Shown here one piece after another: positions 1,856 through 63,531 of a DNA stretch of 64,000 nt. Made by a program: the position numbers and the translations under genes. The stretch is from a virus. Every line of letters begins with the position of its first letter. Position 1 is the stretch's first letter. Below the pieces are notes generated by a model. The model was not told the DNA's origin and ran no database searches. It saw only the letters and a program-made list of their open reading frames with translations. The stretch is taken from positions 1 to 64,000 of the IMG/VR virus record IMGVR_UViG_3300022468_000627. One strand, 5' to 3'.

Positions 1856-1873
1856 GATTGTGGTGTCACGCCG
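1856..1873 (-). promoter_or_regulatory. Junction motif copy (CGGCGTGAC-AC-CACAATC)
   Basis: The hexamer ends 7 nt before ATG 1849, with no SD. The TGA inside the motif is the stop of the upstream gene. Confidence 0.5.
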
Positions 1874-2276
1874 CCCCAAACGGCATCGCCACGTCATCCG
1901 AGCGCTGGGGCTCCAGGCGCTTGATGCGCTTGCGCATCACCACCTCGACGCAACGGTCGGGGTGGCGCTCGCGGTAACGGCGCCCCTTCTGGCGTGGCGT
2001 CTGGGCCCGGGGTCTCGCCTTGTTGACGCCAGGCCCGGCCAGGTAGACCGCGCTCGGCGTGCCCGGGTGATCCCGGCGCCAGTCGTGTACGTGGATCCGC
2101 TGGTCCTCCATGAGGAAGCCCAGGTAAATTTGCGCGGTCTTTGTCGAGCAGTGCAGGAGCTCGGCCAGCTCGTTCCGGGTGCGGGGCTCGGCCAGGGTCG
2201 CCAAGAAGCGGCCAATGCGGATCTGGGCCGCCGTGCTGTCCAGGCGGTAACGCTCGATGCTGCTGGGGCTACGCAT
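1866..2276 (-). CDS. Putative winged-helix/HTH DNA-binding protein (136 aa)
   Basis: The segment RNELAELLHCSTKTAQIYLGFLMEDQRI looks like a wHTH recognition unit. The C-terminal tail is basic. Confidence 0.5.
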   Translation of the reverse strand: MRSPSSIERYRLDSTAAQIRIGRFLATLAEPRTRNELAELLHCSTKTAQIYLGFLMEDQRIHVHDWRRDHPGTPSAVYLAGPGVNKARPRAQTPRQKGRRYRERHPDRCVEVVMRKRIKRLEPQRSDDVAMPFGAA

Positions 2277-2535
2277 GGGCGCCTCCGAACAGGTCGAGCG
2301 TGCGGGAATCGCGGGTGACCACGCCAGCCCGGGCCTCGACCAATCCCGCCGACACGGCGCACGCCGGGCCGACCGGCTGGCCCTGCACCAGGGCGGCAGC
2401 GCGCGCCAGGCGGCGACCGCACATGGCGCAGCGCATGCCGGCCGACTTGATCAATTCGGGTTTCTTCGCGCCCGAGCTGCGCCCGAGGCCTCCACTGTTT
2501 GCGGCAAAACCCTTGCCGCGCTTGGTTTTTTTCAT
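2269..2535 (-). CDS. Small basic Cys-containing protein (88 aa)
   Basis: ATG 2535. K/R-rich N-terminus, then CAMCGRRL...GPAC. The 3' end overlaps the next gene start by 8 nt. Confidence 0.5.
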   Translation of the reverse strand: MKKTKRGKGFAANSGGLGRSSGAKKPELIKSAGMRCAMCGRRLARAAALVQGQPVGPACAVSAGLVEARAGVVTRDSRTLDLFGGAHA

Positions 2536-2555
2536 GTGTGAAAACAGATTGCAGA

Positions 2556-2909
2556 TCAGTTTTTGATTGGAAGCTCGACGGCAGCGGCCACTACCTCGCT
2601 CGGGAATTCAGGGCGCGGGTCCGGGTTGCGTTGGCACCGCACGCCCAGGTCGGCGCCGCTCTTGAGCTTGATGCCGCAGCAGCAGACCGCCGCCTCGGTG
2701 CGACCCTCGCGCTCGATGCCGCAGTTGCTGCAGCGGTAGATGCGCCGATGGTCGAAGGTCTCGCGCGCCAGGATGCGACCGAAGCAGCTGCGGCACACGT
2801 GGTCGGTGATCGCCCAGGCAAAGGTGTCGCCATTCTTTCCCCGGGAAGGGGTCTGCGCGGCCCGTGGAGCGATTTTTTCAAGGGGGTCTGTGGGGTGGGT
2901 GCTTGTCAT
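2556..2909 (-). CDS. Zinc-ribbon-like protein (117 aa)
   Basis: Paired CxxC motifs (CRSC ... CSNC) plus a CCCG cluster. Composition is protein-like. Confidence 0.55.
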   Translation of the reverse strand: MTSTHPTDPLEKIAPRAAQTPSRGKNGDTFAWAITDHVCRSCFGRILARETFDHRRIYRCSNCGIEREGRTEAAVCCCGIKLKSGADLGVRCQRNPDPRPEFPSEVVAAAVELPIKN

Positions 2910-2919
2910 GCCTTCGGCC

Positions 2920-3444
2920 TCACCACAGCCGCGCCTGGCGGACGGCCGCCGGCACCTGCGCCGCGAAGCCGAAGAACACCCGCTGGCGGCTGTCGCGCAG
3001 CGTGGCCACGATCAGCTCGTCCATGTCGGCCGACTGCTCCATGCGCAGCTGCCGCAGGTCGCCGCTGGCGTCGAACCGCAGGCGCCGGCACGCCAGGCCG
3101 CTGGCCTTCACGGGCGCCGTGCCCTTCGCGTTGCGGCCGCGCAACACCTCCCGGGCCCGGTTGTAGCAGCTCACGCAGTGCATGCCGCCGATCAACCGCC
3201 CAGCCGAACGATGGCACCGGGCGCAGGTCAGCGTGCCCTTGAGAGGGCTCATGCTGGCCGCCACCTCGCCGGCATGCACCGCCCCCAACGGGCAGCACTT
3301 GCACGCCGCATGGCTGCCGTCGTTCAGGTCGTTCTCCCGCCGCCACATGCTGGCGCAGCTCGCCGTGCTCAGCGTCGCCCGCATCCGATCGCACCGAAAC
3401 ATCGCCTTGCCCGGCAGCGCCGGATTGCTTGTGTACTCGACCAC
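2920..3444 (-). CDS. Cys-rich protein (174 aa), first gene of leftward operon
   Basis: GTG start with a GGGGG SD-like run 5 nt upstream. Many Cys residues, including CKCC, CARC and CVSC. No family recognised. Confidence 0.55.
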   Translation of the reverse strand: MVEYTSNPALPGKAMFRCDRMRATLSTASCASMWRRENDLNDGSHAACKCCPLGAVHAGEVAASMSPLKGTLTCARCHRSAGRLIGGMHCVSCYNRAREVLRGRNAKGTAPVKASGLACRRLRFDASGDLRQLRMEQSADMDELIVATLRDSRQRVFFGFAAQVPAAVRQARLW

Positions 3445-3472
3445 TCAGACCCCCAACTTAACCAAAATTGAG

Positions 3473-3524
3473 GGAATTCTAAGTGAATTCCGCCCGATTT
3501 GATCAAGTGTTTTTCCATGATCAA
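3473..3524. promoter_or_regulatory. Two inverted repeats (GGAATTC-N5-GAATTCC; TTGATCA-N12-TGATCAA)
   Basis: Read directly at 3473..3491 and 3499..3524, in the divergent intergenic region. Confidence 0.5.
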
Positions 3525-3595
3525 AAACGGCACAACCAGCACTCCCAAGACCTCCACAGCCCTCCCGTGACCTTCCGTGACCGTTGCGCCCCCTC

Positions 3596-3684
3596 GTTAC
3601 TCGCGATACCGCCTCGTAACCCACCCCGGTTACGCGAAAAATCCAGGCCGGACCGTAACCCCCTGTTGTTATGTTACTTGTTAC
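3596..3684. repeat. Cluster of six GTTAC/GTAAC pentamers (iteron-like)
   Basis: Copies at 3596, 3616, 3629, 3655, 3673 and 3680 (plus 3825). CGTAACCC occurs twice. The tandem CCGTGACC x2 lies at 3565 and 3575. Confidence 0.6.
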
Positions 3685-3800
3685 TTTAAATAAATAAGTT
3701 ATAAGAAGGAGAGAGAATATATAATGTAATGTATATTGTACTTATATGATGTAATTATGTGATGTTGTACTTTACTGTGTTCCTTTTTTAATCTATATTG
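3661..3800. other. AT-rich island (about 24% G+C by hand count) in a ~65% G+C genome
   Basis: ttatgttacttgttactttaaataaataagttataagaaggagagagaatatataatgtaatgtatattgtacttatatgatgtaattatgtgatgttgtactttactgtg... contains TATAAT (3720..3725) and repeated ATGTAAT and TTGTACTT. Confidence 0.8.
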
Positions 3801-3858
3801 TCTGACTGTGATGGCCGGTAGCAGGTAACGCCGACCCACAAAACGCCCGGAAACCCGC

Positions 3859-4734
3859 ATGGATGCTGGGTTTCTTCGGATACCAAAAACCCAAACTGAT
3901 ACCACCATGAGCGCTACTGAACTCAACATTCGCCGCCAGATCGTCCGCCTCGCCGTCGGCGAATCGGCCGTGATCAACCCCCACGGGGCCACCCCGGGGG
4001 AGACAATCTATGTGATCTCCAGCTTCGGAAAACTGAGAAGCATCCACTACGAGACCACCGAGCGGGATGGCGTGGTCACAGCAACCAGGCTCGCAGAGCC
4101 CCCATCGGCCAAGGCAAAGGCCGACGTCAACGCCCTGCGGCCCGGCGAATCGGTCGTTATCGGGGGGCCCGGCAGCCTGCACCAGATGGTGCGCATTCAC
4201 TGCTCGAAATTGAACAAGACCGGCGCCGCCCGGTACACCTGCGCCACTGAGGATGGCGGGCTGCGCGTCACCATGCTGGCAGATGGGCAGAACGTTGCCC
4301 GCCAGACGAAATACGGCCTGGAGCGCCTGCACCACGAGCCCGAGCTGGTGCTCGAAGGCTCGCCCCCCGAGCTCCAGCGCATCCGGCTGGCCGCATCCCA
4401 GTACAGCACCCGCCACGCCATGCCTGTGAGCTGCCAGCTGCTGGAGCCCGGCCGCCTGCGCGTGTTCCGGCCCGACCTCGTCGCCCGTGCACCCAGCCCC
4501 GACCGGCGGGCCCAGGCCCTGACCTCAACCCGGCCAAGATCCGACAAGTACGGCCTCGACCGGCTGGCCGACGATCGTGAGCTGCGGTTCACCGTGCCGC
4601 CCAGCGAGCAGAACAACGTTCGCCAAGCCGTGTCCGCCAAGGCCCGCCGCACGGGCTGGCGCATCCGATGCCGGCTGCAGGACGACGGCAGCATGATGGT
4701 GTACCGGGCCGATGCGGCGCAAGCGGCAGAGTGA
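3859..4734 (+). CDS. Hypothetical protein built of four ~50-aa internal repeats
   Basis: 291 aa (alternative ATG at 3907). The four repeat units end ...ERDGVVTATRL, ...EDGGLRVTML, ...EPGRLRVFR and ...DDGSMMVYR. First gene of the rightward early operon. Confidence 0.6.
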   Translation: MDAGFLRIPKTQTDTTMSATELNIRRQIVRLAVGESAVINPHGATPGETIYVISSFGKLRSIHYETTERDGVVTATRLAEPPSAKAKADVNALRPGESVVIGGPGSLHQMVRIHCSKLNKTGAARYTCATEDGGLRVTMLADGQNVARQTKYGLERLHHEPELVLEGSPPELQRIRLAASQYSTRHAMPVSCQLLEPGRLRVFRPDLVARAPSPDRRAQALTSTRPRSDKYGLDRLADDRELRFTVPPSEQNNVRQAVSAKARRTGWRIRCRLQDDGSMMVYRADAAQAAE

Positions 4735-4745
4735 GGGCGCGGGGC

Positions 4746-4851
4746 GCCACGCCACGCTAAGCCACGCCACGCATGCGCGCTATCACCCACTAGCCCACTA
4801 TCACGCTAGTAGTCGATAGCGCGATAGCTGGTCGGATCAGCGCGATAGCTG
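4746..4851. repeat. Dense direct/inverted repeat array upstream of the 4936 gene
   Basis: GCCACGCCACGC x2 (4746, 4761). CTATCAC x2 (4780, 4798). GCGCGATAGCTG x2 (4819, 4840; 21-nt spacing), plus CGATAGC at 4814 and an inverted GCGCGCTATC at 4775. Confidence 0.6.
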
Positions 4852-4875
4852 CTCAAATTTGCGTAAATACAACAC
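4849..4875 (+). promoter_or_regulatory. Conserved 27-mer early control element, copy 1
   Basis: CTGCTCAAATTTGCGTAAATACAACAC matches 8097..8123 (CTGATCAAATTTGCGCAAACACAACAC) at 24 of 27 positions. Confidence 0.55.
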
Positions 4876-4935
4876 ACGACTTAACCAAATTGGATTAAAT
4901 TAAGGGTGTCGAAACAAAGCACTCAGGAGCCCACC

Positions 4936-5076
4936 ATGTACGCAGTCGCTGGATACACCGTCAACACCGCTGAACAGGCCCGCACCCTGCTGCTGGTCGC
5001 CATGCTGAAAGGCGACACGCGCATCGCGCAGCAGGCGCGCAGCGTTCTGGAGAAACTGGAGCTGGCCGGAGCCTGA
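4936..5076 (+). CDS. Small protein (46 aa)
   Basis: Hand-found: MYAVAGYTVNTAEQARTLLLVAMLKGDTRIAQQARSVLEKLELAGA. A CAGGAG SD lies 6 nt upstream. It shares an identical 15-nt initiation context with the next gene. Confidence 0.4.
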   Translation: MYAVAGYTVNTAEQARTLLLVAMLKGDTRIAQQARSVLEKLELAGA

Positions 5077-5134
5077 TTCCACCGCACTGCCTGGCGCGCC
5101 GGGCAGTCCAGTGCAATCAACCCAGGAGCCCACC

Positions 5135-5464
5135 ATGATCCTCACCCAGTCCCAAGCCGAAGCCGTCTACAGCGCCATGTGCGCGCTGAACAATGTGGGT
5201 GGCGCTTTGTGGTGCCGCGCGCAGATGCCATGCAGCACCGAATGGGCGGATGTGCGCCAAGACGACGCTGGGGCTGTGCATATCGGCAAAGGACCGCTGC
5301 ACCGTTTTGACCGCATTGAATCAGTGGTTACCCGTGTTGGCCCGGTCGAATACCACGCCAATCAAGCCGCCTTCGCCGCCGCCTACGGCCTGAACAGCGA
5401 CGAGCCGCAGAGCGCCGTGGCCGCCGCAGCGGGCGGGCTGACGCAAACCGCCATCGAGCGCTGA
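5135..5464 (+). CDS. Hypothetical protein (109 aa)
   Basis: Track ORF 5111..5464 trimmed to ATG 5135 (MILTQSQAEAVYSAM...), which follows a CAGGAG SD. Confidence 0.55.
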   Translation: MILTQSQAEAVYSAMCALNNVGGALWCRAQMPCSTEWADVRQDDAGAVHIGKGPLHRFDRIESVVTRVGPVEYHANQAAFAAAYGLNSDEPQSAVAAAAGGLTQTAIER

Positions 5465-5489
5465 CCCCACCGCACAGCGCCGCGAGCCG

Positions 5490-6230
5490 GTGCTGTCGGG
5501 CAGAGAGCCCCCACGCATGGACCAATCCATGCGCCGGGATTTTCCGGGGCAACCACCACCACACACTATGGGAACCGACATCCACGGCGTCTTCCAACGC
5601 CACGACGCCACCACCAACACCTGGGAAGACATCCCCAGCAACTACGAGCAGAGCCGCCACTACCAGCTGTTCGCCGTCCTGGCCGGCGTGCGCAACGGCC
5701 GTGGATTCGCCGGCGTCAAGACCGGCGAGCCGGTCGAGCCCATCGCGGAGCCGCGCGGCTACCCCGAAGGCTTCCCGGTTGACGAAGACATGCACGTCGT
5801 CGGCAAGCTGGAGGACATCGACCCGCGTCGTCGCGAGTACAGGACTGCTGAGTGTCTGGAAGAAGGCGAAAACCCGCTCGAACTCTGGATGGGCGACCAC
5901 AGCCACAGCTGGCTGACCGGCGCCGAGATGCTGGACTGGTACGCGACCGCGCCGACCGTCATCCAGACCGGCATCTTTGACCGCGCCAACTACGAGAGCT
6001 GGGACAAGAAATCGCCGCCCGATTTCGGCTACTGCGGCGGCATCGGCGGCCATGGCGTCGTGCTGGTCAACGACAACGCGCCCGAGCGCGAAGCCAACAC
6101 GAACTGGACGCACATCCGCTGCGAATGGGAGCAGGGCCTGCGCGGCGAGCTGGCCTACTTCTTCGACGAGGTGGCACGCCTGCAGGCTGAGCACGGTCAG
6201 GTGCGGTTCGTGTTCGGCTTCGATTCCTGA
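5490..6230 (+). CDS. Hypothetical protein (start uncertain)
   Basis: The longest start is GTG 5490. ATG 5517, 5529 and 5568 (MGTDIHGVFQRH...) are alternatives, and none has a strong SD. The body is protein-like (W/Y/E/D-rich). Confidence 0.6.
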   Translation: MLSGREPPRMDQSMRRDFPGQPPPHTMGTDIHGVFQRHDATTNTWEDIPSNYEQSRHYQLFAVLAGVRNGRGFAGVKTGEPVEPIAEPRGYPEGFPVDEDMHVVGKLEDIDPRRREYRTAECLEEGENPLELWMGDHSHSWLTGAEMLDWYATAPTVIQTGIFDRANYESWDKKSPPDFGYCGGIGGHGVVLVNDNAPEREANTNWTHIRCEWEQGLRGELAYFFDEVARLQAEHGQVRFVFGFDS

Positions 6231-6305
6231 CCACCAGACCGCCAGCCCCAGCCGCGCGACAGGCGGCTACCCCTCACCCCCGCCGGGACAGGCCCGGCCA
6301 AGACC

Positions 6306-6776
6306 ATGAGCACCATTAAAACCTCTGACCTCACCGGCGCCGCGCTCGATTGGGCTGTGGCGAAGGCCTGCGGCCTCATCGACGCCGAGGTGCTGATCCG
6401 CCGCGCAAAATCGAAAGCCGTTGTCATCGACGTTGAAAGCAAAACGCTGTTCGACATGCGCTTCGGCCGCGACTGGCGGCCCTCGCACGCGGGGGAGCAA
6501 GGCGGACCCATCATCGAGCGGGAGGGCATCGCTACCCGCAAGCACGGCAGCGGCATTTGGTATGCCATGGCTCAGGCGGACGTGGGTGACGGCCAGCGCT
6601 CTGATTGGCACGAATTCACTTGGCGCAATCCGCACCATTACCCTGACTACCCGCACGAAGCATACAAGCGCCGCCAGCGCTTCTCCGGCCCCACCGCCCT
6701 CATCGCCGCCATGCGCTGCTACGTCGCCAGCAAGCTGGGCCCCGAGGTGGAAGTGCCCCAGGAGCTGCTGGCATGA
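6306..6776 (+). CDS. Hypothetical phage protein, DUF2591/NinX-like (tentative)
   Basis: The N-terminal LTGAALDWAVAKACG recalls DUF2591-type phage proteins (memory only). Confidence 0.55.
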   Translation: MSTIKTSDLTGAALDWAVAKACGLIDAEVLIRRAKSKAVVIDVESKTLFDMRFGRDWRPSHAGEQGGPIIEREGIATRKHGSGIWYAMAQADVGDGQRSDWHEFTWRNPHHYPDYPHEAYKRRQRFSGPTALIAAMRCYVASKLGPEVEVPQELLA

Positions 6777-7186
6777 CCACCACCACCCCCCACCCCTACG
6801 CCCACATCCTGCGCGCCATTGCCGATGGCCAGGCAGTTCAGTGGCAAGACACCGCCGGACAATGGAAATACCAGCCCACCGACGTCACGCTGGATGAGAT
6901 CGCCCGGGCCGGCTACCACCCCACCCGCTACCGCATCAAACCCCGCACCGTCCGCATCGGCGACATCGACGTGCCCGAGCCACTGCGGGAGATGCCGGCC
7001 GATGGCACCACCGTCTGGTGGCCGGATTTTTGCGTTGCTGGCGACAACATGGTCGGCGAAGCAGATGTCGATGGGTTGATTCGCGCAGTGCTACCCACAT
7101 TGCTAAACCGAGGCCTCCTGCACCCCACCCGCGAGGCTGCCGCCGCGCACGCTGCTGCGCTGGTGGCGCTGACTGCGCGGAGTTAA
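6773..7186 (+). CDS. Hypothetical protein (137 aa)
   Basis: ATGA overlap with the upstream stop. Composition is protein-like. Confidence 0.55.
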   Translation: MTTTTPHPYAHILRAIADGQAVQWQDTAGQWKYQPTDVTLDEIARAGYHPTRYRIKPRTVRIGDIDVPEPLREMPADGTTVWWPDFCVAGDNMVGEADVDGLIRAVLPTLLNRGLLHPTREAAAAHAAALVALTARS

Positions 7187-7188
7187 GC

Positions 7189-7557
7189 ATGACCACCACC
7201 CTCGACGCCCTCATCAGGGAGGCCAGCACCGAGCTGGGCAGCACCGCCTGCCAGACTGGCCGGCACCAGTGGTCCACCGAAGGCGAAGGCGGCAGAGGTT
7301 GCCCACACGACCTCACCGACCACTGCGGCCAGGGCGTTTACCGCTGCACCGTCTGCGGCCAGTACGACTACGGCGAACGCGGAGGCCCCGGCGACGCCGA
7401 CTGCGAGCGCTGCTGCCCACACCGAGACGAGCGCGCGCAGGCCATCGCCGCGAGCCGCATCGACCCGCTGCGCCACCTCTGGAACAGCCATCCACGCATC
7501 AATCACTTCCTGCGGCTGCGCGCCCTGCGCCGGCAGCGAAAGCCGAACCTGCCATGA
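7189..7557 (+). CDS. Cys-rich hypothetical protein (122 aa)
   Basis: Trimmed from 7018..7557 to ATG 7189 (MTTTLDALIRE...). Contains CTVCGQ and CERCC motifs. Confidence 0.55.
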   Translation: MTTTLDALIREASTELGSTACQTGRHQWSTEGEGGRGCPHDLTDHCGQGVYRCTVCGQYDYGERGGPGDADCERCCPHRDERAQAIAASRIDPLRHLWNSHPRINHFLRLRALRRQRKPNLP

Positions 7558-7790
7558 CTCGATCTTCATCCCCCGATGTGCGCAACCCGCTGGTGCACCT
7601 GCCATCGGCCCAGGCCATGCAGACGCTACCACCCGAGGCAAAGGCCGCACTGCGCGCCCTGCTCAAGGATCTCAGCGCCGACTGTCGCGCACGCGCCAAC
7701 AAGGCATGGGCCACGCACAAAGCGCCGATGGCCGCGTACTGGAAAGCTCAGGCGGTCTACGCGAACCACGCCCAGCGACTGCTGTCATGA
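7554..7790 (+). CDS. Hypothetical protein (78 aa)
   Basis: ATG 7554 overlaps the upstream stop (ATGA). Sequence MTRSSSPDVRNPLVHLPSAQ... Confidence 0.5.
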   Translation: MTRSSSPDVRNPLVHLPSAQAMQTLPPEAKAALRALLKDLSADCRARANKAWATHKAPMAAYWKAQAVYANHAQRLLS

Positions 7791-8140: not shown

Positions 8141-8184
8141 GAGCACAATACAGGCATTGATTGATTTTATTTGAGGACCCGATC

Positions 8185-8322
8185 ATGAACCCCCACCGCC
8201 AACACGCAGACATCGCCAACCTGGCGCGCAACCGCTTCGGCGAGGCGCTGGCCGGCCTGGTGCTCGCAGCCGGCATCGGCGTATCGCTCGCCTACGTGCT
8301 GGTGCTCAGCTTCACCGCCTGA
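8185..8322 (+). CDS. Possible 45-aa single-TM peptide
   Basis: Hand-found: MNPHRQHADIANLARNRFGEALAGLVLAAGIGVSLAYVLVLSFTA. A GAGGA SD lies upstream. Confidence 0.35.
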   Translation: MNPHRQHADIANLARNRFGEALAGLVLAAGIGVSLAYVLVLSFTA

Positions 8323-29824: not shown

Positions 29825-30097
29825 ATGCCAATTCAGATCGGCATCAAGTTCACCGGCAAGTACGCCGGCCACATGGACACGACTACGGGCACCTACTGGG
29901 AGGTGCTGCCCAAGATCGAGGGCGACGCGCTCTACCTGCAGAGCCGCCTGCTGCAGCCTCGGGCGCAGGTCGGCCAGCGCACCACCGTTGGCGGGCTGTT
30001 GCGCCGCCTGCTGCCGGCCCCGATCGGCCTCGTGAACCTCACCGCTCAACCCATCCCCATCTCCGGTCCCTGGCAGGCGTCGGGACACCAGAATTGA
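29825..30097 (+). CDS. Hypothetical protein (90 aa)
   Basis: Trimmed to ATG 29825, which has an AGGAGA SD (MPIQIGIKFTGKYAGH...). Confidence 0.45.
   Translation: MPIQIGIKFTGKYAGHMDTTTGTYWEVLPKIEGDALYLQSRLLQPRAQVGQRTTVGGLLRRLLPAPIGLVNLTAQPIPISGPWQASGHQN
30078..30094 (+). promoter_or_regulatory. Junction motif copy (CGTCGGGAC-AC-CAGAAT)
   Basis: The hexamer ends 6 nt before the TraR ATG 30101, with no SD. Confidence 0.5.
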
Positions 30098-32073: not shown

Positions 32074-32091
32074 GATTCTGCGGTCACGACG
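32074..32091 (-). promoter_or_regulatory. Junction motif copy (CGTCGTGAC-CG-CAGAATC)
   Basis: The hexamer ends 6 nt before the holin ATG 32068, with no SD. Confidence 0.55.
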
Positions 32092-40314: not shown

Positions 40315-40332
40315 GATTGTGCCGTCACGACG
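40315..40332 (-). promoter_or_regulatory. Junction motif copy (CGTCGTGAC-GG-CACAATC)
   Basis: Lies 18 nt (including the AGAGG SD) before ATG 40297. The TGA within the motif is the upstream stop. Confidence 0.55.
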
Positions 40333-44397: not shown

Positions 44398-44415
44398 CAT
44401 TCTGGCGTCACGACA
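44398..44415 (-). promoter_or_regulatory. Junction motif copy (TGTCGTGAC-GC-CAGAATG)
   Basis: Starts directly after the spike-gene stop. The hexamer ends 6 nt before ATG 44392, with no SD. Confidence 0.55.
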
Positions 44416-50495: not shown

Positions 50496-50514
50496 CATGA
50501 TCGCCTCACGACTG
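50496..50514 (-). promoter_or_regulatory. Degenerate junction motif (CAGTCGTGAG-GC-GATCATG)
   Basis: Lies between the tube stop and the attenuator hairpin. A weak match. Confidence 0.25.
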
Positions 50515-53728: not shown

Positions 53729-53746
53729 CATTCTCTTGTCACGACG
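53729..53746 (-). promoter_or_regulatory. Junction motif copy (CGTCGTGAC-AA-GAGAATG)
   Basis: The hexamer ends 9 nt before ATG 53720, with no SD. It is the inverted partner of 53751..53767. Confidence 0.55.
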
Positions 53747-53750
53747 CCAT

Positions 53751-53767
53751 GGCGTGACGGCAGAATG
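53751..53767 (+). promoter_or_regulatory. Junction motif copy (GGCGTGAC-GG-CAGAATG)
   Basis: The hexamer ends 6 nt before ATG 53773, with no SD. It is arranged back-to-back with 53729..53746. Confidence 0.55.
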
Positions 53768-56295: not shown

Positions 56296-58530
56296 TCAAG
56301 CCTTGAATGAACGTCCAGCGACGATGGTAAATTCACGACCGCCAGCGCCCGCCCGGGCCCGGCGGGCCGGCGCGACGGTGGTGCGCGACACCCGTGCGGC
56401 CGCCGTGACTCCAGCCGATCGGGCGGCTTCCATGGTGAGCGTCCGGTCGGCCGGGGTGGCGTTCGCGACGAAGTAGACAGCGCCCCCGCCTGAGCCCTGC
56501 CGCTGCAAAGCCAGCGTGCCGGTGATCTTGTGCACTTGGAACACGCGCGCGCTGGCGCTCAACGGCTCAGCCACACCGCCATCCCCGGCCAGCTCGTGCG
56601 CCTGCTCAATCCCCCCAGCCGCTGCAGCCGCGGCCTGGGCCATGGCAGCGGCCAGCAGCTTGTGCACTTGGGCCAGCGCAGCATCGAGGCTTGCCGCCGT
56701 CTGCAGGCAGTCTGCCGCAGCGACTTCCTGGTTGCGGGTGACCCGCCCGGCGGCCGCCGCAGCATCCTGGGATGTGGCCGAGGAAGCCAGCTGGTGCACA
56801 CCCAGCACCACACCCGGCGCACAGGAAGCCGACTGGGCCGACCCGGCGCCGCGCAGGTTGTGGGCCAGCGCGATGACGCCGGCGCCAGAGGTCTGCGATT
56901 GGGTGGACGCCTGGCCGGCCATGCCCAGCGCCTGCGCCAGCGCGCCGGTCGACGAGATCGCCGCCGCCGACGAAGGAGCCCCGGCCAGGGGGTGCACCTG
57001 CCGGGCGACCCCGGCCCCGCTCGCGGCAGACTGCGCCGCAGGCGCGCCGGCCAGCACGTGAGCGACCACCACGGCTCCGGCAGCGGATGCGTGGGCTTCG
57101 GTCGCGGTGGCGCCAGCCAGGATGTTGACGGCGACCAGCGCGCCGGTGCCGGCTTGGTTTGCCTGGGAGACTCCGGCCCCGGCCAGCGCCTGCGCCTGGG
57201 TGATGGTGCCTGCACCAGCCGCGCCGGCCTGGGACGATGCGCCGCCGGCGAGCTGGTGCACCTGGGCCACCTGCCCGGGGCTGCACACCGGCTGCTGGGT
57301 GACGCTTGCGCCAGCGGTGGCCGTGGCGAGAACGACGACGCCGACCGACGAGGCAGCCGCCTGCTGGGCGCCCTGCCCGGCCAGGGCGTGCAGCTGCACG
57401 GCGGCGCTTGCCGATGACGCGCCGGCTTGGGAAGCCGACGCGGCGGCAAGCACCTGGGCCTGCCAAATGGCGCCGGCTGCAGCCGCGCCCGTCTGGGAGC
57501 AGGCCGCCGCCGCCAGCACGTGCGCCTGGGTTTCAGCACCGGTGCTGCTGGCGCTTGCCTGCTGGCACGCCGCGCCGGCCAGCAGCTGAACCTGCACCAC
57601 GGCCGCCGCGCCGCTGGAGGCGCCCTGCGAGGACGTGGCCCCAGCCAGCACAGCGGTCTGGCCGGCCGCGCCAGCCGTGGCCGACGCGGATTGCAGCGCC
57701 CCGGCGGCGGCGAGGATGTGCACCAGGGAGGCCGCGCCCGCGCCGCTGGCGGCCAACTGCTGGGCAGACGCTGCCGCCAAAGCCTGAATCTGGGTCACGG
57801 CGCCCGCCGCCGAGCCGGCCGCTTGAGTGGATCCGGCGCCGGCGATCGCGTGCACCTGGGCCGCGCCGCCCGTGCCTGCCGTGCTGGCCTGCGAAGACGC
57901 AGCGCCGAGCAGGGCCAGGGCCTGCACCACGGTGCCGGTTCCCGATGCGTTGGCCTGGGTCGATCCGGCGCCAACCAGCGCCACGGCCAAGGCCACGGCG
58001 CCAGCGCTGGAGGCGTTCCCCTGAGAGCTTGCCGAGCCTGCGGTGGCGTGCACCTGGCCGGCAACGCCGGTCGCAGAGGATGCCGTCTGGCTGGCGCCCG
58101 CTGCGGCCAGAACCTGCACGCCGGTAACGGCGCCGGTTGCCGACGACTGCGCCTGGCTGGAGGCCGCCGCCTGCAGGGCCTGGGTGAGCACGACGACGCC
58201 AGTGCTGGCCGTCTGAGCCTGAGAGGTGGCCGACACGGCCAGGGCGTGGACCTGGGTCTCGACGCCGGTGCCGGCAGCGTTGGCCTGGGTGCTGCCAGCC
58301 CCGGCCAGCAGCGCCACCTGGGAGGCCGTGCCGGTGCTGGTCGTGGCAGCCTGGGTGACGGACGTCCCGGTGAGGGAGATGGTCGACGGCGAGGCCGCCG
58401 CGTTCAGGAAGAAGGCCGCAGCCAGGTTCTTGACGAGCGGGCTTTTCGCCACCAGCCGGCTGGCGAGCCGGGAGGCGCCGCCGCGCCCGGTTCGGCCAGC
58501 CCCGGGGAAGCCTCGGCGCAGCCGGGCCAT
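56296..58530 (-). CDS. Virion-module protein made of 28 tandem 22-residue A/G/S/T/Q/V-rich repeats (744 aa)
   Basis: The frame was chosen by coupling to neighbours: the ATG lies 3 nt after the upstream TAA, and its own stop lies 2 nt before the next ATG. Residues 53-668 parse into 28 units of exactly 22 aa (e.g. LAGAGSTQANAAGTGVETQVHA). Confidence 0.7.
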   Translation of the reverse strand: MARLRRGFPGAGRTGRGGASRLASRLVAKSPLVKNLAAAFFLNAAASPSTISLTGTSVTQAATTSTGTASQVALLAGAGSTQANAAGTGVETQVHALAVSATSQAQTASTGVVVLTQALQAAASSQAQSSATGAVTGVQVLAAAGASQTASSATGVAGQVHATAGSASSQGNASSAGAVALAVALVGAGSTQANASGTGTVVQALALLGAASSQASTAGTGGAAQVHAIAGAGSTQAAGSAAGAVTQIQALAAASAQQLAASGAGAASLVHILAAAGALQSASATAGAAGQTAVLAGATSSQGASSGAAAVVQVQLLAGAACQQASASSTGAETQAHVLAAAACSQTGAAAAGAIWQAQVLAAASASQAGASSASAAVQLHALAGQGAQQAAASSVGVVVLATATAGASVTQQPVCSPGQVAQVHQLAGGASSQAGAAGAGTITQAQALAGAGVSQANQAGTGALVAVNILAGATATEAHASAAGAVVVAHVLAGAPAAQSAASGAGVARQVHPLAGAPSSAAAISSTGALAQALGMAGQASTQSQTSGAGVIALAHNLRGAGSAQSASCAPGVVLGVHQLASSATSQDAAAAAGRVTRNQEVAAADCLQTAASLDAALAQVHKLLAAAMAQAAAAAAGGIEQAHELAGDGGVAEPLSASARVFQVHKITGTLALQRQGSGGGAVYFVANATPADRTLTMEAARSAGVTAAARVSRTTVAPARRARAGAGGREFTIVAGRSFKA
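56527..58374 (-). repeat. Coding tandem repeat, 66-nt period x 28, diverged copies
   Basis: Hand parsing of the protein found no indels between units. All six frames are open here because of the composition. Confidence 0.8.
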
Positions 58531-59352: not shown

Positions 59353-59736
59353 TCAGGTGGGCTGGTTGGACGTGTAGGTCAGCTGCGGGAAGTTGACCGT
59401 GTTGCCGGACGTGATGACCTGGTCGGTGGTTTCGTCCGTCACCCACAGCACCTTGGCCGAGCCGTCGGTGAACGCGATGTGCAGGTTCGGCGAGGCGCCA
59501 GACCCGGCCGAGGCCGTCGCACTCTTGCCGGCGGCCGTGGTCAGCACGCGATTGTTGCCGGACGAGGTGATCGTGTAGTCACCGGCCACCATGGTGACAT
59601 CGGCCAGCAGGTTGCTGACCACGGTCGCGTAGCTGTCGCCGGCCGTATAGGCCTTGATCAGCAGCATGTGCGTGGCCGCGTTCTTGATGGCGTTCAGGCC
59701 ACCATCCAGCACATCGGAATGAACGAACTTCGCCAT
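59353..59736 (-). CDS. Hypothetical virion protein (127 aa)
   Basis: TAGGAG SD. First gene after the terminator plus junction motif. Confidence 0.6.
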   Translation of the reverse strand: MAKFVHSDVLDGGLNAIKNAATHMLLIKAYTAGDSYATVVSNLLADVTMVAGDYTITSSGNNRVLTTAAGKSATASAGSGASPNLHIAFTDGSAKVLWVTDETTDQVITSGNTVNFPQLTYTSNQPT

Positions 59737-59771: not shown

Positions 59772-59789
59772 GATTCTGGCGTCACGACG
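59772..59789 (-). promoter_or_regulatory. Junction motif copy (CGTCGTGAC-GC-CAGAATC)
   Basis: Lies immediately downstream of the terminator 59790..59815 and 36 nt (including the TAGGAG SD) before ATG 59736. Confidence 0.6.
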
Positions 59790-59815
59790 AAAAAAGGGCT
59801 GCCGTGAGGCAGCCC
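59790..59815 (-). terminator. Rho-independent terminator inside late region
   Basis: Minus strand: GGGCTGCC-TCAC-GGCAGCCC followed by TTTTTT, directly abutting the junction-motif copy. Confidence 0.8.
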
Positions 59816-61928: not shown

Positions 61929-61954
61929 TGAATTTCCTCTCTGAAAGGACGTGG

Positions 61955-62599
61955 TTACTGCATCACGCGAGCGACGATGCTGGGGGGGATGGCCTGGCCC
62001 TTGTTCAGGCAGGTCTCAGCCATGGCGATGTCGATGCCCGAGATGCGGCCTTCTTTCTGAGCGTTCAGCGCCTTGGCGAAGAACACTTCGGGGGTCACGC
62101 CATCGGCGGCGCCAATGGACTTGGCCATGGTGTCGGTGTTGGCGGTGGCGGCGGGCTTCTCGACCACGGACAGCACGGCTTTGCGGCCACGGCCTTCGCC
62201 GGACAGCTTGGCGACGCGCTCGGTCAGAGACTTGATCAGCTCGCCCTGGCCCTTGATCAGCTCCACGGTCTGGCCGAGGGCCTTCGCCAGGTTGCTGTCG
62301 AGGCCTTCGACGCGCTCGCTCAGGGACTTGAGCATTTCGCTGCCGTCGAAAGCCTGCACCTTGGTGCCGTCGTCGAGGGTCAGCTCGAAGGACTTGGCCA
62401 TGGGGTCGCCATCGCCATCGGCGCCGTCGGCAGGCTTCTCGCCCTTGCCGTCGCCGCCTTCACCCGCCCCGCCTTCCTCGGCGGCAGCTTGGATTTTCTT
62501 TTCATCCTCGCCGTTGTCCGCCGGGAGGGCTTTGGCGAGCTCGGTTTGCTCAGTGGTGAGCGTTTGCAGCTCACCCATCAGCTTCTCGAAATCACTCAT
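61955..62599 (-). CDS. Scaffolding protein candidate (214 aa)
   Basis: Acidic, Gly/Asp/Glu-rich and coiled-coil-like. Lies between the protease and the MCP. ATGA-coupled. Confidence 0.65.
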   Translation of the reverse strand: MSDFEKLMGELQTLTTEQTELAKALPADNGEDEKKIQAAAEEGGAGEGGDGKGEKPADGADGDGDPMAKSFELTLDDGTKVQAFDGSEMLKSLSERVEGLDSNLAKALGQTVELIKGQGELIKSLTERVAKLSGEGRGRKAVLSVVEKPAATANTDTMAKSIGAADGVTPEVFFAKALNAQKEGRISGIDIAMAETCLNKGQAIPPSIVARVMQ

Positions 62600-63507
62600 T
62601 GCTTACTCCGTTTGTTGAGACCGATTTTCAAATCGCGCATGAAGCGCTCCACCCATTCAGCGGCCTGGTCCGGCGGGATGCTGAATTGATCGGCGGCGAA
62701 CTTGACGAGCTCGCGAGCGCCAGGGTTCTGGCCGGCAGAGCCGGCTCGCATGCCTCCCGCGAGCTTGTCGCGGAAGTCGAAATAGGAATGGATCTTGTGA
62801 TCCAGGGACTGGCGGCGCATCGCGGCCCCACCAGACAGCACGGCCGAGTCGGTGCCGTAGCCGGCCTCCAGGGCCTTGGCGAAGTCCAGGCCGGCCGACG
62901 TCCACGACTTTGCGAACGCGCCCAGCGGGATCGTCGCGCAGGTGCCAACGTGCTGGTTCACCGGGGTCTTGCTCACGCCGATGTTGGTCCAACGAACCTT
63001 GGACACGATGGCCTTGCGCAGCTTGGTCTTGGGGTCGATCTCGATCCCCTTCGCCAGCACGGCGCCGCCGACCGACGGATACCAGCGCTGCGGCGGGTTC
63101 AGGTCGGTGATGCTCGACCAAAAGTCGTTGGCACGCTCAGCCGCCGGGCCGCTGCCGGTGTAAATCTCAGCCTTCACGAACGTGGTCTTGCCGGTCTGGC
63201 GCACGTCGATGGGACGGCCAATCTCATAGAGCTCGCAGCCAGGAATCCCGGGGCGGCCCTTGGCCGGGTCCGGCTTGCCGATCAGCGTGTAATGGTCGAT
63301 GTCGATGTTGCCGTAGCGCTTGAAGTAGTCGGCCGACTCGGCGAGCGCCTTGGCGGCGATGACCTCGTCCTGCTGGTCGACGCCCTCATTGCTGGCCTCA
63401 AAGTAGACGACGCGCTGCCCGCCATCGGTGTGAGGCGTGGCCTTGAGCATGTTACCGATGCTCAAATAGTCGGGGATGCCCGCAAGCAGCTGGTCGTCGC
63501 TGAACAT
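62596..63507 (-). CDS. Prohead protease candidate (303 aa)
   Basis: Position upstream of the scaffold and MCP. GNIDIDHYT and YPSVGGAV are possible His/Ser catalytic sites. The C-terminal part shares a block with the MCP N-terminus. Confidence 0.65.
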   Translation of the reverse strand: MFSDDQLLAGIPDYLSIGNMLKATPHTDGGQRVVYFEASNEGVDQQDEVIAAKALAESADYFKRYGNIDIDHYTLIGKPDPAKGRPGIPGCELYEIGRPIDVRQTGKTTFVKAEIYTGSGPAAERANDFWSSITDLNPPQRWYPSVGGAVLAKGIEIDPKTKLRKAIVSKVRWTNIGVSKTPVNQHVGTCATIPLGAFAKSWTSAGLDFAKALEAGYGTDSAVLSGGAAMRRQSLDHKIHSYFDFRDKLAGGMRAGSAGQNPGARELVKFAADQFSIPPDQAAEWVERFMRDLKIGLNKRSKQ

Positions 63508-63513
63508 GCGGGT

Positions 63514-63531
63514 GATTTTGTTGTCACGACG
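63514..63531 (-). promoter_or_regulatory. Junction motif copy (CGTCGTGAC-AA-CAAAATC)
   Basis: Lies downstream of the terminator 63554..63577. The hexamer ends 7 nt before the protease ATG 63507, with no SD. Confidence 0.6.

Follow-up and report, generated by a model that had tools for sequence, protein, structure and literature searches.

A motif of 17 bases stands before structural and lysis genes of the phage analysed here, which raises the question of whether this motif is a promoter and, if so, which polymerase reads it. The window (the whole 64-kb stretch of DNA that was analysed) comes from a member of the PHB04 family (Bordetella phage PHB04, Pseudomonas phage Dolphis and Escherichia phage ECML-606-1), a family of temperate myoviruses of roughly 90–95 kb. 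An earlier, sequence-only reading of the window had proposed a compact promoter producing leaderless mRNAs. Our sequence-level tests and comparative data support this proposal, and the motif is probably a middle/late promoter of PHB04-like phages, used by the host polymerase with the help of a phage factor and giving rise to many leaderless mRNAs.

Motif copies and terminators in the window

A search for CGTCGTGAC-NN-CAnAAT with up to two mismatches yielded nine matches in the window, whereas 100 dinucleotide-preserving shuffles of the window averaged 0.38 and never gave more than 2; the frequency of the motif is therefore above chance. The matches are the nine good copies reported in the sequence-only reading, with the same positions and strands, and the placement of all copies at gene junctions was also borne out: 9/9 are in gene sense, each shortly upstream of a start codon. 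CGTGAC alone is found about 57 times in the window (67% GC), and the hexamer follows it at the listed copies only. The copies, which occur every 2–10 kb along the late strand, and the neighbouring terminators are as follows (distances run from the hexamer to the ATG; SD, Shine-Dalgarno):

63515..63531, minus strand: motif copy CGTCGTGACAACAAAAT, 7 nt to ATG 63507, prohead protease gene
59773..59789, minus strand: motif copy CGTCGTGACGCCAGAAT, 36-nt leader with a TAGGAG SD, ATG 59736
53730..53746, minus strand: motif copy CGTCGTGACAAGAGAAT, 9 nt to ATG 53720, neck gene; left member of a pair
53750..53766, plus strand: motif copy TGGCGTGACGGCAGAAT, 6 nt to ATG 53773; right member of the pair
44399..44415, minus strand: motif copy TGTCGTGACGCCAGAAT, 6 nt to ATG 44392, baseplate module
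40316..40332, minus strand: motif copy CGTCGTGACGGCACAAT, 18-nt leader with an AGAGG SD, ATG 40297, tail-fibre module
32075..32091, minus strand: motif copy CGTCGTGACCGCAGAAT, 6 nt to ATG 32068, holin-like membrane protein
30078..30094, plus strand: variant motif copy CGTCGGGAC, 6 nt to ATG 30101
1857..1873, minus strand: variant motif copy CGGCGTGAC, 7 nt to ATG 1849
50497..50512, minus strand: probable weak copy GTCGTGAGgcGATCAT, after the tail-tube gene
56324..56339, minus strand: possible weak copy GTCGTGAAttTACCAT, in the end of an Ala-rich ORF, upstream of the adaptor gene
63561..63578, minus strand: intrinsic terminator (terminator scan), upstream of the putative protease promoter
59790..59815, minus strand: intrinsic terminator GGGCTGCC-tcac-GGCAGCCC-TTTTTT, after the capsid operon (read from the sequence)

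The earlier spacings to the ATG (6, 7, 9, 18 and 36 nt) proved correct, as did the statement that an SD is lacking at spacings of 6–9 nt and present at the two long ones. Two copies had been described as following rho-independent terminators, and both terminators were recovered: the hairpin at 63578-63561 lies 29 nt upstream of the protease copy, and the terminator after the capsid operon abuts the motif copy at 59789. The back-to-back pair was likewise found, in the 52-nt gap between two divergent genes whose starts are 53720(-) and 53773(+); the former gene heads the sheath/tube operon. The copy in the baseplate module is directly 3' of the preceding gene's stop codon, and that at 1857..1873 overlaps the stop codon of a wHTH-like gene. 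The protease gene is homologous to PHB04 19624-20517 and Dolphis gp8, the holin-like gene heads a lysis cassette with an endolysin (Glyco_hydro_19 domain, 30785-31408), gene 30101-30316 encodes a TraR/DksA-like zinc-finger protein (phrog_54), and the gene starting at ATG 1849 encodes a phage metallopeptidase (PF18894). The motif copies and terminators would divide the late strand into separate units for the head, neck, sheath/tube, baseplate, fibres and lysis.

The two weak copies suggested earlier fared differently. The one at 50497..50512, which is followed by a terminator-like hairpin (~50462-50494) and then by an SD-led ATG at 50438, is probably real, as the tube/chaperone gap of PHB04 holds a full motif copy (10698-10713). 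The other (14625-14642) departs from the upstream block at four positions and lacks a counterpart in PHB04, Dolphis and ECML-606-1 alike, and was therefore not confirmed.

Conservation in the PHB04 family

The pattern GTCGTGAY-NN-nAnAAT recurs at syntenic late-gene junctions of PHB04, Dolphis, ECML-606-1 and dozens of metagenomic relatives, which range from 48 to 69% GC and have capsid proteins only ~50% identical. An exact-pattern scan of IMG/VR recovered 100 stretches, 36 of which were protein-level relatives of the phage, and several of these relatives carry the motif at syntenic junctions with 65–75% nucleotide identity. The complete genomes contain 19 (PHB04, Bordetella), 12 (Dolphis, P. 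putida) and 12 (ECML-606-1, E. coli) loose copies, nearly all in gene sense and the majority in structural or lysis regions. The divergent pair at the neck genes is kept in 4/4 genomes (window, PHB04, Dolphis and ECML-606-1), and an ortholog of the tail-fibre copy with the same leader was found in three relatives (L021, L041 and L075). Single-base variants are locus-specific across genomes: the putative right-hand neck promoter keeps GGCGTGAY (PHB04 and Dolphis, GGCGTGAC; ECML-606-1, GGCGTGAT) and the putative TraR promoter has GTCGGGAC, the G variant of the copy at 30078..30094 being also present in PHB04 (88125). At the metallopeptidase junction, a GGCGTGAC variant recurs in many metagenomic relatives.

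Promoter-like architecture and distance to the start codon

With the 7-mer TCGTGAY as the sole anchor, A-11 and T-7 were both found in 108 of 236 unique family sites, against a chance rate of ~4% (a rough estimate from base composition). The hexamer thus appears to behave as a sigma70-type -10 element, with A-11 and T-7 coupled to the upstream block. A logo of the 44 sites with an ATG 6 nt after the hexamer showed that G-22, T-21, C-12, A-9 and A/C-8 are also conserved, unforced by the search; no -35 and no TGn were detected, and nothing was conserved upstream of -22, in agreement with the earlier view that a conserved -35 is lacking. The spacing between the hexamer and the following ATG is sharply peaked: of 262 unique loose sites, 44 have the ATG at 6 nt and 19 at 7 nt, other distances accounting for ~3 sites each. 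In the 44 sites with the ATG at 6 nt, the base at -1 is C in 75% of cases, and, together with the A of the ATG, this gives C/A at -1/+1, as expected from the pyrimidine-purine start-site rule. Exact sites with an ATG at 6 nt were observed in 10/28 cases at family loci and 4/56 at non-family loci. In the deposited annotation of PHB04, eight genes start at an ATG 6–7 nt after a hexamer, and none of these (0/8) has an SD-like tetramer, versus 82/116 of the other genes; all eight start with ATG, as does every ATG-adjacent gene, whereas GTG or TTG is used in 17% of the genes elsewhere in PHB04.

From these patterns we infer promoter activity and a start site. The hexamer c-A-n-A-A-T (-12 to -7) would be read as a -10-like element by the host sigma70-type holoenzyme, and the abutting 8-bp block G-T-C-G-T-G-A-C/T (-22 to -15) would stand in for the absent -35 box, most likely through recognition by a phage specificity factor itself expressed from ordinary early promoters. 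Transcription would start 6–7 nt after the hexamer. For roughly half of the copies the predicted start coincides with the A of the ATG, and transcripts of the portal, protease, neck, baseplate, holin, TraR-like and metallopeptidase genes may consequently be leaderless or nearly so; the remaining copies would give leaders of 16–40 nt with a normal SD.

The copies match the borders of the modules (head, neck, tail, baseplate, fibres and lysis) and the upstream block is quasi-palindromic (GTC-GT-GAC), as might be expected of a linker for recombination between gene modules, or of a repressor operator, devoid of promoter activity of its own. However, neither would need strict gene-sense orientation, a -10-like hexamer at a fixed spacing, the 6–7 nt ATG phase, C/A at -1/+1 or the anticorrelation with the SD, and the locus-specific variants kept across genomes point to tuning of a signal rather than to shared homology tracts. 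We therefore consider this explanation highly improbable.

Some ATG-adjacent genes start shortly after the preceding stop codon (within 20–30 nt), and translational coupling on read-through transcripts is therefore possible for them. Since several copies lie 20–30 nt after an upstream stop codon, the motif would be present in such transcripts, and its constant position just 5' of start codons could suggest an RNA-level element, such as a processing site, a translational enhancer or a coupling signal on polycistronic late transcripts. However, copies also occur directly after intrinsic terminators and in the 52-nt divergent gap, where there is no upstream transcript. The motif contains no SD-like tetramer and matches no Rfam family, it lies between 6 and 36 nt from the ATG, depending on the copy, and its sole self-complementarity (GTC/GAC with a 2-nt centre, read from the sequence) is too short for a hairpin; the conservation pattern is that of a -10 box and not of base pairs. 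An RNA-level role as the main explanation thus seems most improbable. Mosaic linkers and RNA elements had both been put forward as alternatives in the sequence-only reading; they may persist as side effects, but they fit the data much less well than a promoter.

The promoter reading leaves the question of whether the host enzyme needs assistance. A control region near the left end of the window provides a comparison:

3445..3858, no strand assigned: early control region between divergent operons, with an AT-rich core at 3660-3800

The motif is absent from this region, in which each strand has ordinary sigma70-type -35/-10 pairs, and a scan of the window identified no sigma70 -35/-10 match in the late region (49–64 kb; 0.9 expected). 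The divergent neck pair leaves just 52 nt for two promoters. The host sigma70 holoenzyme might read the whole element unaided, as a strong, compact and factor-independent promoter, with sigma region 3 or the beta' zipper contacting the -22 to -15 block; the hexamer is -10-like, the element is present in phages of very different hosts, all with a conserved primary sigma, and homology revealed no dedicated factor. However, the motif has neither a -35 nor a TGn extended -10, and promoters without these elements are weak with sigma70 alone; the block in the spacer is not known as a sigma70 element. Furthermore, ordinary -35/-10 promoters in the early region, as against a motif found mainly at late genes, point to a temporal switch, and the lysogen of a temperate phage must keep its late genes silent. 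Unaided recognition is thus unlikely. The earlier suggestion that the motif might depend on an activator, on an alternative sigma or on a polymerase of the phage was right in spirit, given the lack of a -35 and TGn.

Candidate trans-acting factors

Neither RNA polymerase nor sigma domains were detected in the ORFs of the window or in ten PHB04 ORFs outside it (including all the large ones, which encode SNF2 helicase/methylase "polyvalent" proteins), and no such gene is annotated in the complete genomes of PHB04, Dolphis and ECML-606-1. This search was based on Pfam and PHROGs for a subset of ORFs and on deposited annotations, and remote sigma-like proteins could escape it. As no polymerase or sigma gene was found, we infer that a phage-encoded specificity factor acting on the host RNA polymerase, which would thereby be redirected, is the most likely mechanism. 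The non-structural, non-replication proteins common to the window, PHB04, ECML-606-1 and Dolphis are one small HTH protein and two adjacent Cys-rich proteins specific to the family:

2920..3444, minus strand: candidate factor 1, 174 aa, of which 8 Cys and 2 His are invariant
2556..2909, minus strand: candidate factor 2, zinc-ribbon-type, with a core of ~90 aa

The 174-aa protein, with ~10 metal-ligand positions, is encoded by the first gene to the left of the early control region and is confined to the phage family (ten records among 50,697 phage records, corresponding to nine distinct phages, with PHB04 present twice). The core of the second protein has the pattern H-x-C-x2-C ... C-x2-C ... 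C-x-C ... C, and its gene adjoins that of the first in every family genome checked. Among the 29 IMG/VR loci fetched solely for encoding the 174-aa protein, 27 carry motif copies, with the ATG at 5–7 nt in 27/59 copies; this co-occurrence of motif and candidate factor is confounded by common ancestry. Neither protein has a recognisable DNA-binding or polymerase-binding domain or a structural match, and the predicted fold of the 174-aa protein matched none of the known structures. We tentatively propose these two early proteins as the candidate factor, an assignment with somewhat less than even chances.

The motif could also serve an unrecognised phage polymerase or a phage sigma of high divergence, as a promoter read in one continuous 17-bp unit in the way that single-subunit polymerases read -17 to +1; transcription would begin at the hexamer or directly behind it and leave leaders of 6–8 nt. 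It is a single compact block with nothing conserved upstream, and many family ORFs have no assigned function. Like SP6 and T7 promoters, it is a contiguous element of about 17–18 bp, with a superficial likeness to the SP6 core GGTGACACTATAG (GGTGAC-AC-TATA-G). However, besides the absence of polymerase and sigma domains from the window, the large PHB04 ORFs and the three annotated genomes, the family core lacks a polymerase-size candidate other than replication and structural proteins. Unlike in SP6 and T7, there is no single-subunit polymerase gene and no conserved initiating G; the variable internal NN, the -10-type A-11/T-7 pattern and C/A at -1/+1, 7 nt after T-7, favour sigma-type melting. 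The predicted fold of the 174-aa protein also seems to differ from the all-helical sigma fold. A dedicated polymerase or sigma is, on this evidence, very unlikely.

Comparison with known systems

By analogy, the closest counterparts of the putative PHB04-family promoters appear to be found in P1, whose late promoters depend on Lpa, and in the Thermus phages Lalka27a and phiYS40, with their leaderless late transcripts. P1 is a temperate myovirus of ~93 kb, with 11 late promoters scattered through its morphogenetic and lysis genes, each consisting of a -10 hexamer and a conserved 9-bp inverted repeat (the "-22 region") that replaces the -35 box and is bound by Lpa (gp10), an early phage activator under repressor control. 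Both systems have a short, partly palindromic block at about -20 beside a -10, in many dispersed copies at late genes. However, the P1 block is AAGTTACTT and that of the PHB04 family GTCGTGAC, its spacing from the hexamer is variable in P1 (4–9 nt in two promoters compared) and fixed at 2 nt in the PHB04 family, and the same two P1 promoters have long leaders and are not ATG-adjacent. No Lpa homologue was detected in the window or the fetched relatives (tblastn, best E 0.4).

The Lalka phages are distant relatives of the window phage (capsid 37% identical), with which they share their capsid lineage, an integrase and large polyvalent virion proteins. Their 16 experimentally supported late promoters lack a -35 and combine a special -10 (TAGGGT) with a single conserved base further upstream (C-25); the start lies 6 nt after the hexamer, most transcripts are leaderless and divergent late pairs occur. 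The authors who described them also infer a phage factor, because no phage polymerase or sigma is present. However, Lalka has no GTCGTGAC block and the window phage no TAGGGT, and a search of the 50,697 phage records did not find the 174-aa protein in those of Lalka. The most divergent relative in our set (L145) has the hexamers CAAGCT, CACGCT and TACGGT.

T4-type late promoters (gp55/gp33) have an extended -10 and no -35, and are read by the host core polymerase with phage specificity proteins; they resemble the PHB04-family motif in being reduced to the -10 region. T4 itself has TATAAATA and SD-led late mRNAs, and its divergent sigma, gp55, is coupled to the sliding clamp; no gp55-like or gp33-like protein was detected in our phage.

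A -10 adjoining the ORF drives leaderless genes in Deinococcus. The lambda cI mRNA from PRM is also leaderless, with an ORF-adjacent -10. The Deinococcus-Thermus and lambda cI cases have in common with the PHB04 family a -10 fixed a few bases before the ATG, a start at the A of the AUG (predicted in the PHB04 family) and no SD, but they follow ordinary host promoter grammar, whereas in the PHB04 family the -10 is fused to a phage-specific block and the putatively leaderless genes are abundant structural genes of Proteobacteria phages. The hosts also differ, the phylum of the Lalka host making routine use of leaderless mRNAs and the PHB04-family hosts being Proteobacteria. In the E. coli phage ECML-606-1 a smaller share of the copies is ATG-adjacent (2/12), and the Morganella phage Mecenats66, the late genes of which are SD-led, has almost none of this form; leaderlessness is therefore no inherent property of the motif. 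The rarity of the ATG-adjacent form in the E. coli and Morganella phages agrees with the generally low efficiency of leaderless mRNAs in enterobacteria.

The phage and its relatives

Nucleotide and protein searches placed the window nearest to Bordetella phage vB_BbrM_PHB04. Further relatives were Pseudomonas phages Dolphis, Jeremy and Touem01, Morganella phage Mecenats66, Aeromonas phage ST4, Escherichia phage ECML-606-1, Enterobacter phage phiT5282EW and Yersinia phage fHe-Yen8-01. PHB04 and these relatives are 86–96 kb in size, with capsid proteins 44–50% identical to that of the window; more distant capsid relatives were found in the Thermus Lalka phages (37%) and the SPO1-like phages (about 30%). 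The window, which derives from JGI metagenome 3300022305, represents about two thirds of a PHB04-like genome, the portal, terminase and polyvalent-protein segment lying outside it. It encodes structural proteins (tail collar, baseplate, sheath, tube, capsid and protease), a lysis cassette whose endolysin is of the class I chitinase type, an integrase, a DksA/TraR-like zinc finger and a set of replication proteins (Toprim primase-helicase, VRR-NUC, SSB, DEAD-type helicase, PDDEXK exonuclease, SMC-like ATPase and PIF1-type helicase).

A 17-base motif at gene junctions

The motif, an 8-bp block (GTCGTGAY) followed by two bases and a −10-like hexamer (cAnAAT), is real and highly non-random. A pattern search with CGTCGTGACNNCANAAT, allowing up to two mismatches, returned exactly the nine good copies of the sequence-only reading, with the same coordinates and strands, versus a mean of 0.38 and a maximum of 2 in dinucleotide-preserving shuffled controls. 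CGTGAC by itself occurs about 57 times in the window (67% GC), and the hexamer follows it only at the copies listed.

Copies of the motif in the window (position; distance from hexamer to ATG; Shine-Dalgarno sequence)
1857; 7 nt; none
30078; 6 nt; none
32075; 6 nt; none
40316; 18 nt; AGAGG
44399; 6 nt; none
53730; 9 nt; none
53750; 6 nt; none
59773; 36 nt; TAGGAG
63515; 7 nt; none

The spacers had been described as G/C-rich and devoid of a Shine-Dalgarno (SD) sequence where short, and as containing one where long, and both descriptions were borne out; read in gene sense, the short spacers are cccacc, gggcgc, ggccgc and similar. An intrinsic terminator does precede two of the copies, one called by the scan at 63578–63561 and the other, abutting 59789 and visible in the sequence, reading GGGCTGCC-tcac-GGCAGCCC-T6. 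The back-to-back pair was also recovered, as two copies within a 52-nt gap between divergent genes. A signal acting at the RNA level does not fit copies that lie behind terminators and in a divergent gap, or a motif without structure; a search of the whole window against Rfam returned no family.

The two weak copies that had been proposed fared differently. The one at 50497–50512 is probably real, since it follows the tail-tube gene, and the corresponding position in PHB04 is occupied by a full copy (10698–10713). The one at 14625–14642 has no counterpart in the relatives and was rejected on the grounds of this lack of conservation.

At 1866–1873, the TGA within the GTGAC block is the stop codon of an upstream wHTH-like gene (1866–2276), so the end of this gene overlaps the next putative promoter. 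At 44416, the stop codon of the upstream gene directly adjoins the block.

Conservation of the motif in the phage family

An exact-pattern scan covering 2.9 million IMG/VR contigs identified 100 stretches, 36 of which were protein-level relatives of the window phage; about 25 stretches aligned to the window at 64–75% nucleotide identity and carried the motif at syntenic junctions. Loose copies (GTCGTGAY-NN-nAnAAT) were found in the complete genomes of PHB04 (19), Dolphis (12) and ECML-606-1 (12), almost all in gene sense. Most of them precede portal, protease, neck, baseplate, fibre and lysis genes, and a few are located elsewhere, for example before the metallopeptidase and TraR-like genes. 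All four genomes (window, PHB04, Dolphis and ECML-606-1) preserve the back-to-back pair lying between the divergent neck genes, and orthologous promoters retain private single-base variants across genomes.

Variants of the motif retained at orthologous genes
GGCGTGAC, right-hand neck gene (GGCGTGAT in ECML-606-1)
GGCGTGAC, metallopeptidase gene
GTCGGGAC, TraR-like gene

The hexamers of relatives with 48–57% GC are CATAAT, TATAAT or CATACT, so the hexamer is not a by-product of base composition. A search of genome contigs with the sheath protein yielded only five distant MAG relatives (40–58% identity); the exact motif was absent from all five, and loose copies were present in two of them (L001 and L002). 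Our literature search found no paper describing the motif or the promoters of PHB04-like phages.

The locus L145 (IMGVR_UViG_2884881887_000001, 1940–12871), which carries the most divergent relative of a 174-aa cysteine-rich protein considered below (35% identity), keeps GTCGTGAC with the hexamers CAAGCT, CACGCT and TACGGT. These are nearer to the TAGGGT of the Thermus Lalka phages, which may mean that the block evolves independently of the hexamer.

In PHB04, a perfect motif at 59525–59549 (L107 9525–9549) has an ATG 6 nt downstream, and the nearest annotated start is at 59449; the start of this ORF was probably missed or misplaced in the deposited annotation. The start annotated at 13967 in the same genome lies 9 nt downstream of a motif-phased ATG at 13976.

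Anatomy of the putative promoter

A logo was built from the sites whose ATG lies 6 nt past the hexamer, with the A of the ATG as +1; some of its positions are imposed by the search pattern. The consensus is G−22 T−21 C G T G A C/T−15, two weakly constrained bases (g, c), and C−12 A−11 n A−9 A/C−8 T−7, followed by four unconstrained bases, S at −2, C at −1 (75% of 44 sites) and the ATG. No position upstream of −22 was conserved or had information content in this logo; there is thus no −35 box. The TGn of an extended −10 is also absent, positions −15 and −14 being C/T and mostly G rather than TG.

Given the imposed positions, the analysis was repeated with only the 7-mer TCGTGAY as anchor. A−11 occurred together with T−7 at 108 of the 236 unique family sites, against a chance level of roughly 4%, a rough estimate from base composition, and the block and the hexamer are therefore truly coupled at a fixed spacing. 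The conserved A−11 and T−7 are the positions mattering most for −10 recognition by sigma70-family factors, and A−9 and A/C−8 were also enriched.

The distance from the hexamer to the next ATG peaks sharply among 262 unique loose sites, in loci selected by the motif and not by the ATG: 44 sites have the ATG at 6 nt and 19 at 7 nt (63/262 together), with about three sites at each of the other distances. An ATG at 6 nt followed 10 of 28 exact sites in family loci, versus 4 of 56 in non-family loci. This geometry is compatible with a transcription start at a purine 6–8 nt past the hexamer, with a pyrimidine at −1.

A sigma54 promoter was rejected, as GTCGTGAC-NN-CAnAAT is without GG-N10-GC (GG at −24, GC at −12). 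Readings as a sigma28 or ECF promoter were rejected on inspection, because neither the spacing nor the key bases fit.

Translation signals and probable leaderless starts

Leaderless mRNAs need a 5′ AUG. All seven short-spacer copies of the window are followed by an ATG start, as are the eight genes that begin, in the deposited PHB04 annotation, 6–7 nt after a hexamer; among the other PHB04 genes, 83% start with ATG and 17% with GTG or TTG. An SD-like tetramer between −18 and −4 was found in none of these eight genes, versus 82 of the 116 others, and an SD is present at the long-spacer copies of the window and the family genomes. This is the pattern expected for transcripts starting at the A of the ATG, and the short-spacer copies probably give rise to leaderless or near-leaderless mRNAs. 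As a recombination linker or an operator the motif is poorly explained, because its orientation, its hexamer, its phase with the ATG and the anticorrelation with SD sequences would all be left unaccounted for.

The ATG-adjacent share varies from phage to phage: about 11/20 in PHB04, 7/11 in the window, 6/12 in Dolphis and 2/12 in ECML-606-1. It is close to zero in Mecenats66, in which late genes have GGGGG/GAGG leaders and remnants of the block are retained (TCGTGATgg...TAAT). Promoter function thus appears to be separable from leaderlessness, and the leaderless form seems to be optional, being adopted in hosts that tolerate it. The host-to-host differences in this share would amount to a natural experiment in how far a host tolerates leaderless translation.

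Probable transcription units

A 414-nt gap between divergent operons in the window (3445–3858) contains an AT-rich core with ordinary −35/−10 pairs on both strands, and no motif.

AT-rich island in the gap between divergent operons
3660–3800, + strand, TTTACT-17-TATATT
3660–3800, − strand, ATCACA-17-TACAAT

This island is probably an early or immunity control region. The 15-kb late segment (49–64 kb) contains no −35/−10 match, with 0.9 expected, and its only promoter-like sequences are the motif copies. On the late strand, there is one copy per 2–10 kb, and the copies and terminators delimit units for protease-scaffold-capsid, head completion and neck, neck-sheath-tube, tape measure and hub, baseplate, fibres, and lysis.

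A terminator-like hairpin lies immediately 3′ of several copies in the window and its relatives.

Motif copies with an adjoining hairpin
Window, 50462–50512, − strand
ECML-606-1, about 7515–7559
PHB04, about 90350–90389
Dolphis, about 28081–28125

At these sites, a transcript initiated 6–7 nt past the hexamer would begin within the 5′ arm of the hairpin, so that upstream transcripts would terminate, while those initiated at the motif, without the stem, would read on. By inference from the sequence, the arrangement may be an overlapping terminator/promoter design.

The proposal that the motif is a compact promoter producing leaderless mRNAs is thus supported as far as sequence reaches. The motif is very probably a promoter, and appears to be best described as a phage late promoter without a −35 element, in which the hexamer abuts a specificity block. 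It would be unusual in being phased to start codons, giving leaderless mRNAs, in phages of Proteobacteria.

The transcribing polymerase and known late promoters

Searches with Pfam and PHROGs detected no RNA polymerase or sigma domain in the window ORFs or in ten PHB04 ORFs outside the window, and no such protein is annotated in the complete genomes of PHB04, Dolphis and ECML-606-1. The domains found instead were helicase, methylase, primase, SSB, integrase, endolysin, DksA-like finger, AraC and RelA_SpoT; the large PHB04 ORFs encode SNF2 helicase/methylase polyvalent proteins, and PHB04 also has one RelA_SpoT-domain protein. The compactness of the element and its likeness to the SP6 promoter core GGTGACACTATAG point to a promoter for a cryptic phage polymerase. 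However, no polymerase gene was found and the pattern is of the −10 type; the cognate single-subunit RNA polymerase gene of the T7/SP6-like class was absent from the window, the large PHB04 ORFs and the three annotated genomes. The host polymerase is therefore the likely enzyme, and the combined model, a late promoter read by the host enzyme, seems likely on present evidence.

Without a TGn, a −10 alone makes a weak promoter. A factor-independent sigma70 promoter, which would be recognized by the host holoenzyme without help, fits poorly, because both the −35 and the TGn are missing and the early and late regions are divided. Given this weakness, and as the late genes must stay off in a lysogen, a phage factor reading positions −22 to −15 is the most economical model: a phage-made specificity factor would read the block and the host polymerase would transcribe.

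The closest system in architecture and logic is phage P1, whose eleven dispersed late promoters combine a −10 with a 9-bp inverted repeat near −22 that is the binding site of the early activator Lpa. In the window, the arms GTC and GAC of the 8-bp block (−22 to −15) flank a non-palindromic GT. The sequence, the spacing rule and the protein all differ from those of P1, and tblastn with P1 Lpa against the window and loci L001–L115 found no homologue (best E 0.4).

The Thermus phages Lalka27a and phiYS40 are closest in lineage and leaderless output. Lalka27a late promoters have the −10 TAGGGT, a conserved C−25 and no −35, and start 6 nt downstream; most transcripts are leaderless, a factor was inferred by the authors, who likewise concluded that the Lalka phages have no polymerase or sigma factor of their own, and leaderless mRNAs are routine in the host phylum. 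Here, by contrast, the hexamer is cAnAAT rather than TAGGGT, position −25 is not conserved, and the 174-aa cysteine-rich protein is missing from the Lalka records among the 50,697 phage records searched. The likeness to T4 late promoters is limited to the idea of an extended −10 only.

Candidate specificity factors

The block is identical in phages of Bordetella, Pseudomonas and Escherichia, so the factor should belong to the family core. PHB04 ORFs were compared with those of ECML-606-1, Dolphis and the window; the non-structural, non-replication core consists of two adjacent cysteine-rich proteins and a small HTH protein.

Core proteins neither structural nor involved in replication
2920–3444, − strand, cysteine-rich protein of 174 aa
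2556–2909, − strand, cysteine-rich protein of about 95 aa
about 19429–19668, small HTH protein

The two cysteine-rich genes are the first leftward of the early control region, and their products would therefore be made early. For the 174-aa protein, which has no Pfam domain and in which eight cysteines and two histidines are invariant, there are more than 200 homologues (57–72% identity), nearly all of 174 aa and on contigs of up to 92–96 kb. Among the 50,697 phage records, it was present only in the PHB04 family (ten records, corresponding to nine distinct phages). The protein of about 95 aa has the pattern H-x-C-x2-C ... C-x2-C ... C-x-C ... C, and NCBI annotates one prophage copy as ‘RPC12/RpoP’, a zinc-ribbon call. 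AlphaFold models of the two proteins were confident (pLDDT 83.5 and 81.5). They had no significant match by Foldseek against the PDB and BFVD or by profile searches against PDB sequences; the best non-significant likenesses were to the zinc ribbons of Rpb9/C11, eL43 and TFIIE, and one BFVD match was to an unnamed 90-aa viral protein (39% identical over 85 residues).

Of 29 IMG/VR loci retrieved solely for encoding the 174-aa protein, 27 contained the motif, with 59 copies in all, versus 0.1–1.0 per locus in shuffles, and an ATG at 5–7 nt in 27 of the 59. This co-occurrence is as the model would predict, although it is confounded by common descent. We put forward the two cysteine-rich proteins as tentative candidates for the specificity factor, the balance of probability being somewhat against them.

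The TraR/DksA-like gene is driven by a variant of the motif in the window, PHB04 and Dolphis, so its product is more likely to be a co-regulated modulator than the switch. It is under this variant in three of the four genomes (30101–30316 in the window). A protein with a RelA_SpoT domain is encoded in the virion-protein block of PHB04 (L106, 35166–37431), as is one annotated as a (p)ppGpp synthetase/hydrolase. These genes suggest that the phage may manipulate ppGpp/DksA control of the host RNA polymerase, and the TraR/DksA-like protein, with the RelA/SpoT-like proteins of PHB04, might adjust host translation or the polymerase to favour leaderless transcripts.

Leaderless mRNAs are thought to be marginal in Proteobacteria. 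In its boldest form, which we consider rather unlikely as a whole, the model would have a widespread family of temperate phages of Proteobacteria, including an E. coli phage, express their main structural and lysis genes truly leaderless, from a new class of −35-less promoters switched on by a novel zinc-binding activator (the 174-aa and approximately 95-aa proteins, for which neither a homologue of known function nor a known fold was found) docking at −22 to −15. If the main reading of the motif as a late promoter holds, a 17-bp promoter and probably one or two small phage proteins would form a simple, portable late-gene switch, a new specificity factor for bacterial RNA polymerase would read the promoter spacer, and abundant virion proteins would be made from leaderless mRNAs in Proteobacteria, raising the question of whether the phage alters host translation initiation. 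With the motif, transcription could also be mapped at once and start codons corrected in phages annotated almost entirely as ‘hypothetical’.

Other features of the window

An ORF of 744 aa (56296–58530, − strand), extremely rich in Ala, Gly, Ser and Gln and with degenerate protein-level repeats, lies between neck genes in the stretch of highest GC content in the window (74%); PHB04 has no counterpart of equal size, and Tandem Repeats Finder detected no DNA-level tandem repeat in the ORF. The segment 17578–20000, of lower GC content (0.61), carries a C-5 cytosine DNA methylase (PF00145) between helicase and exonuclease genes. It is probably a mobile insert, as PHB04 has only two small ORFs there. 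Upstream of the primase-helicase gene (11659–14496), a noncoding element of about 40 nt, GGGCTAGGGTAGCTCCCGAAAAGCGCTCCTGCTGGCGCC, is located at 14520–14600 on the − strand. It is kept in place in PHB04 and Dolphis and partly in ECML-606-1, and might serve as an operator, an origin element or a structured RNA leader.
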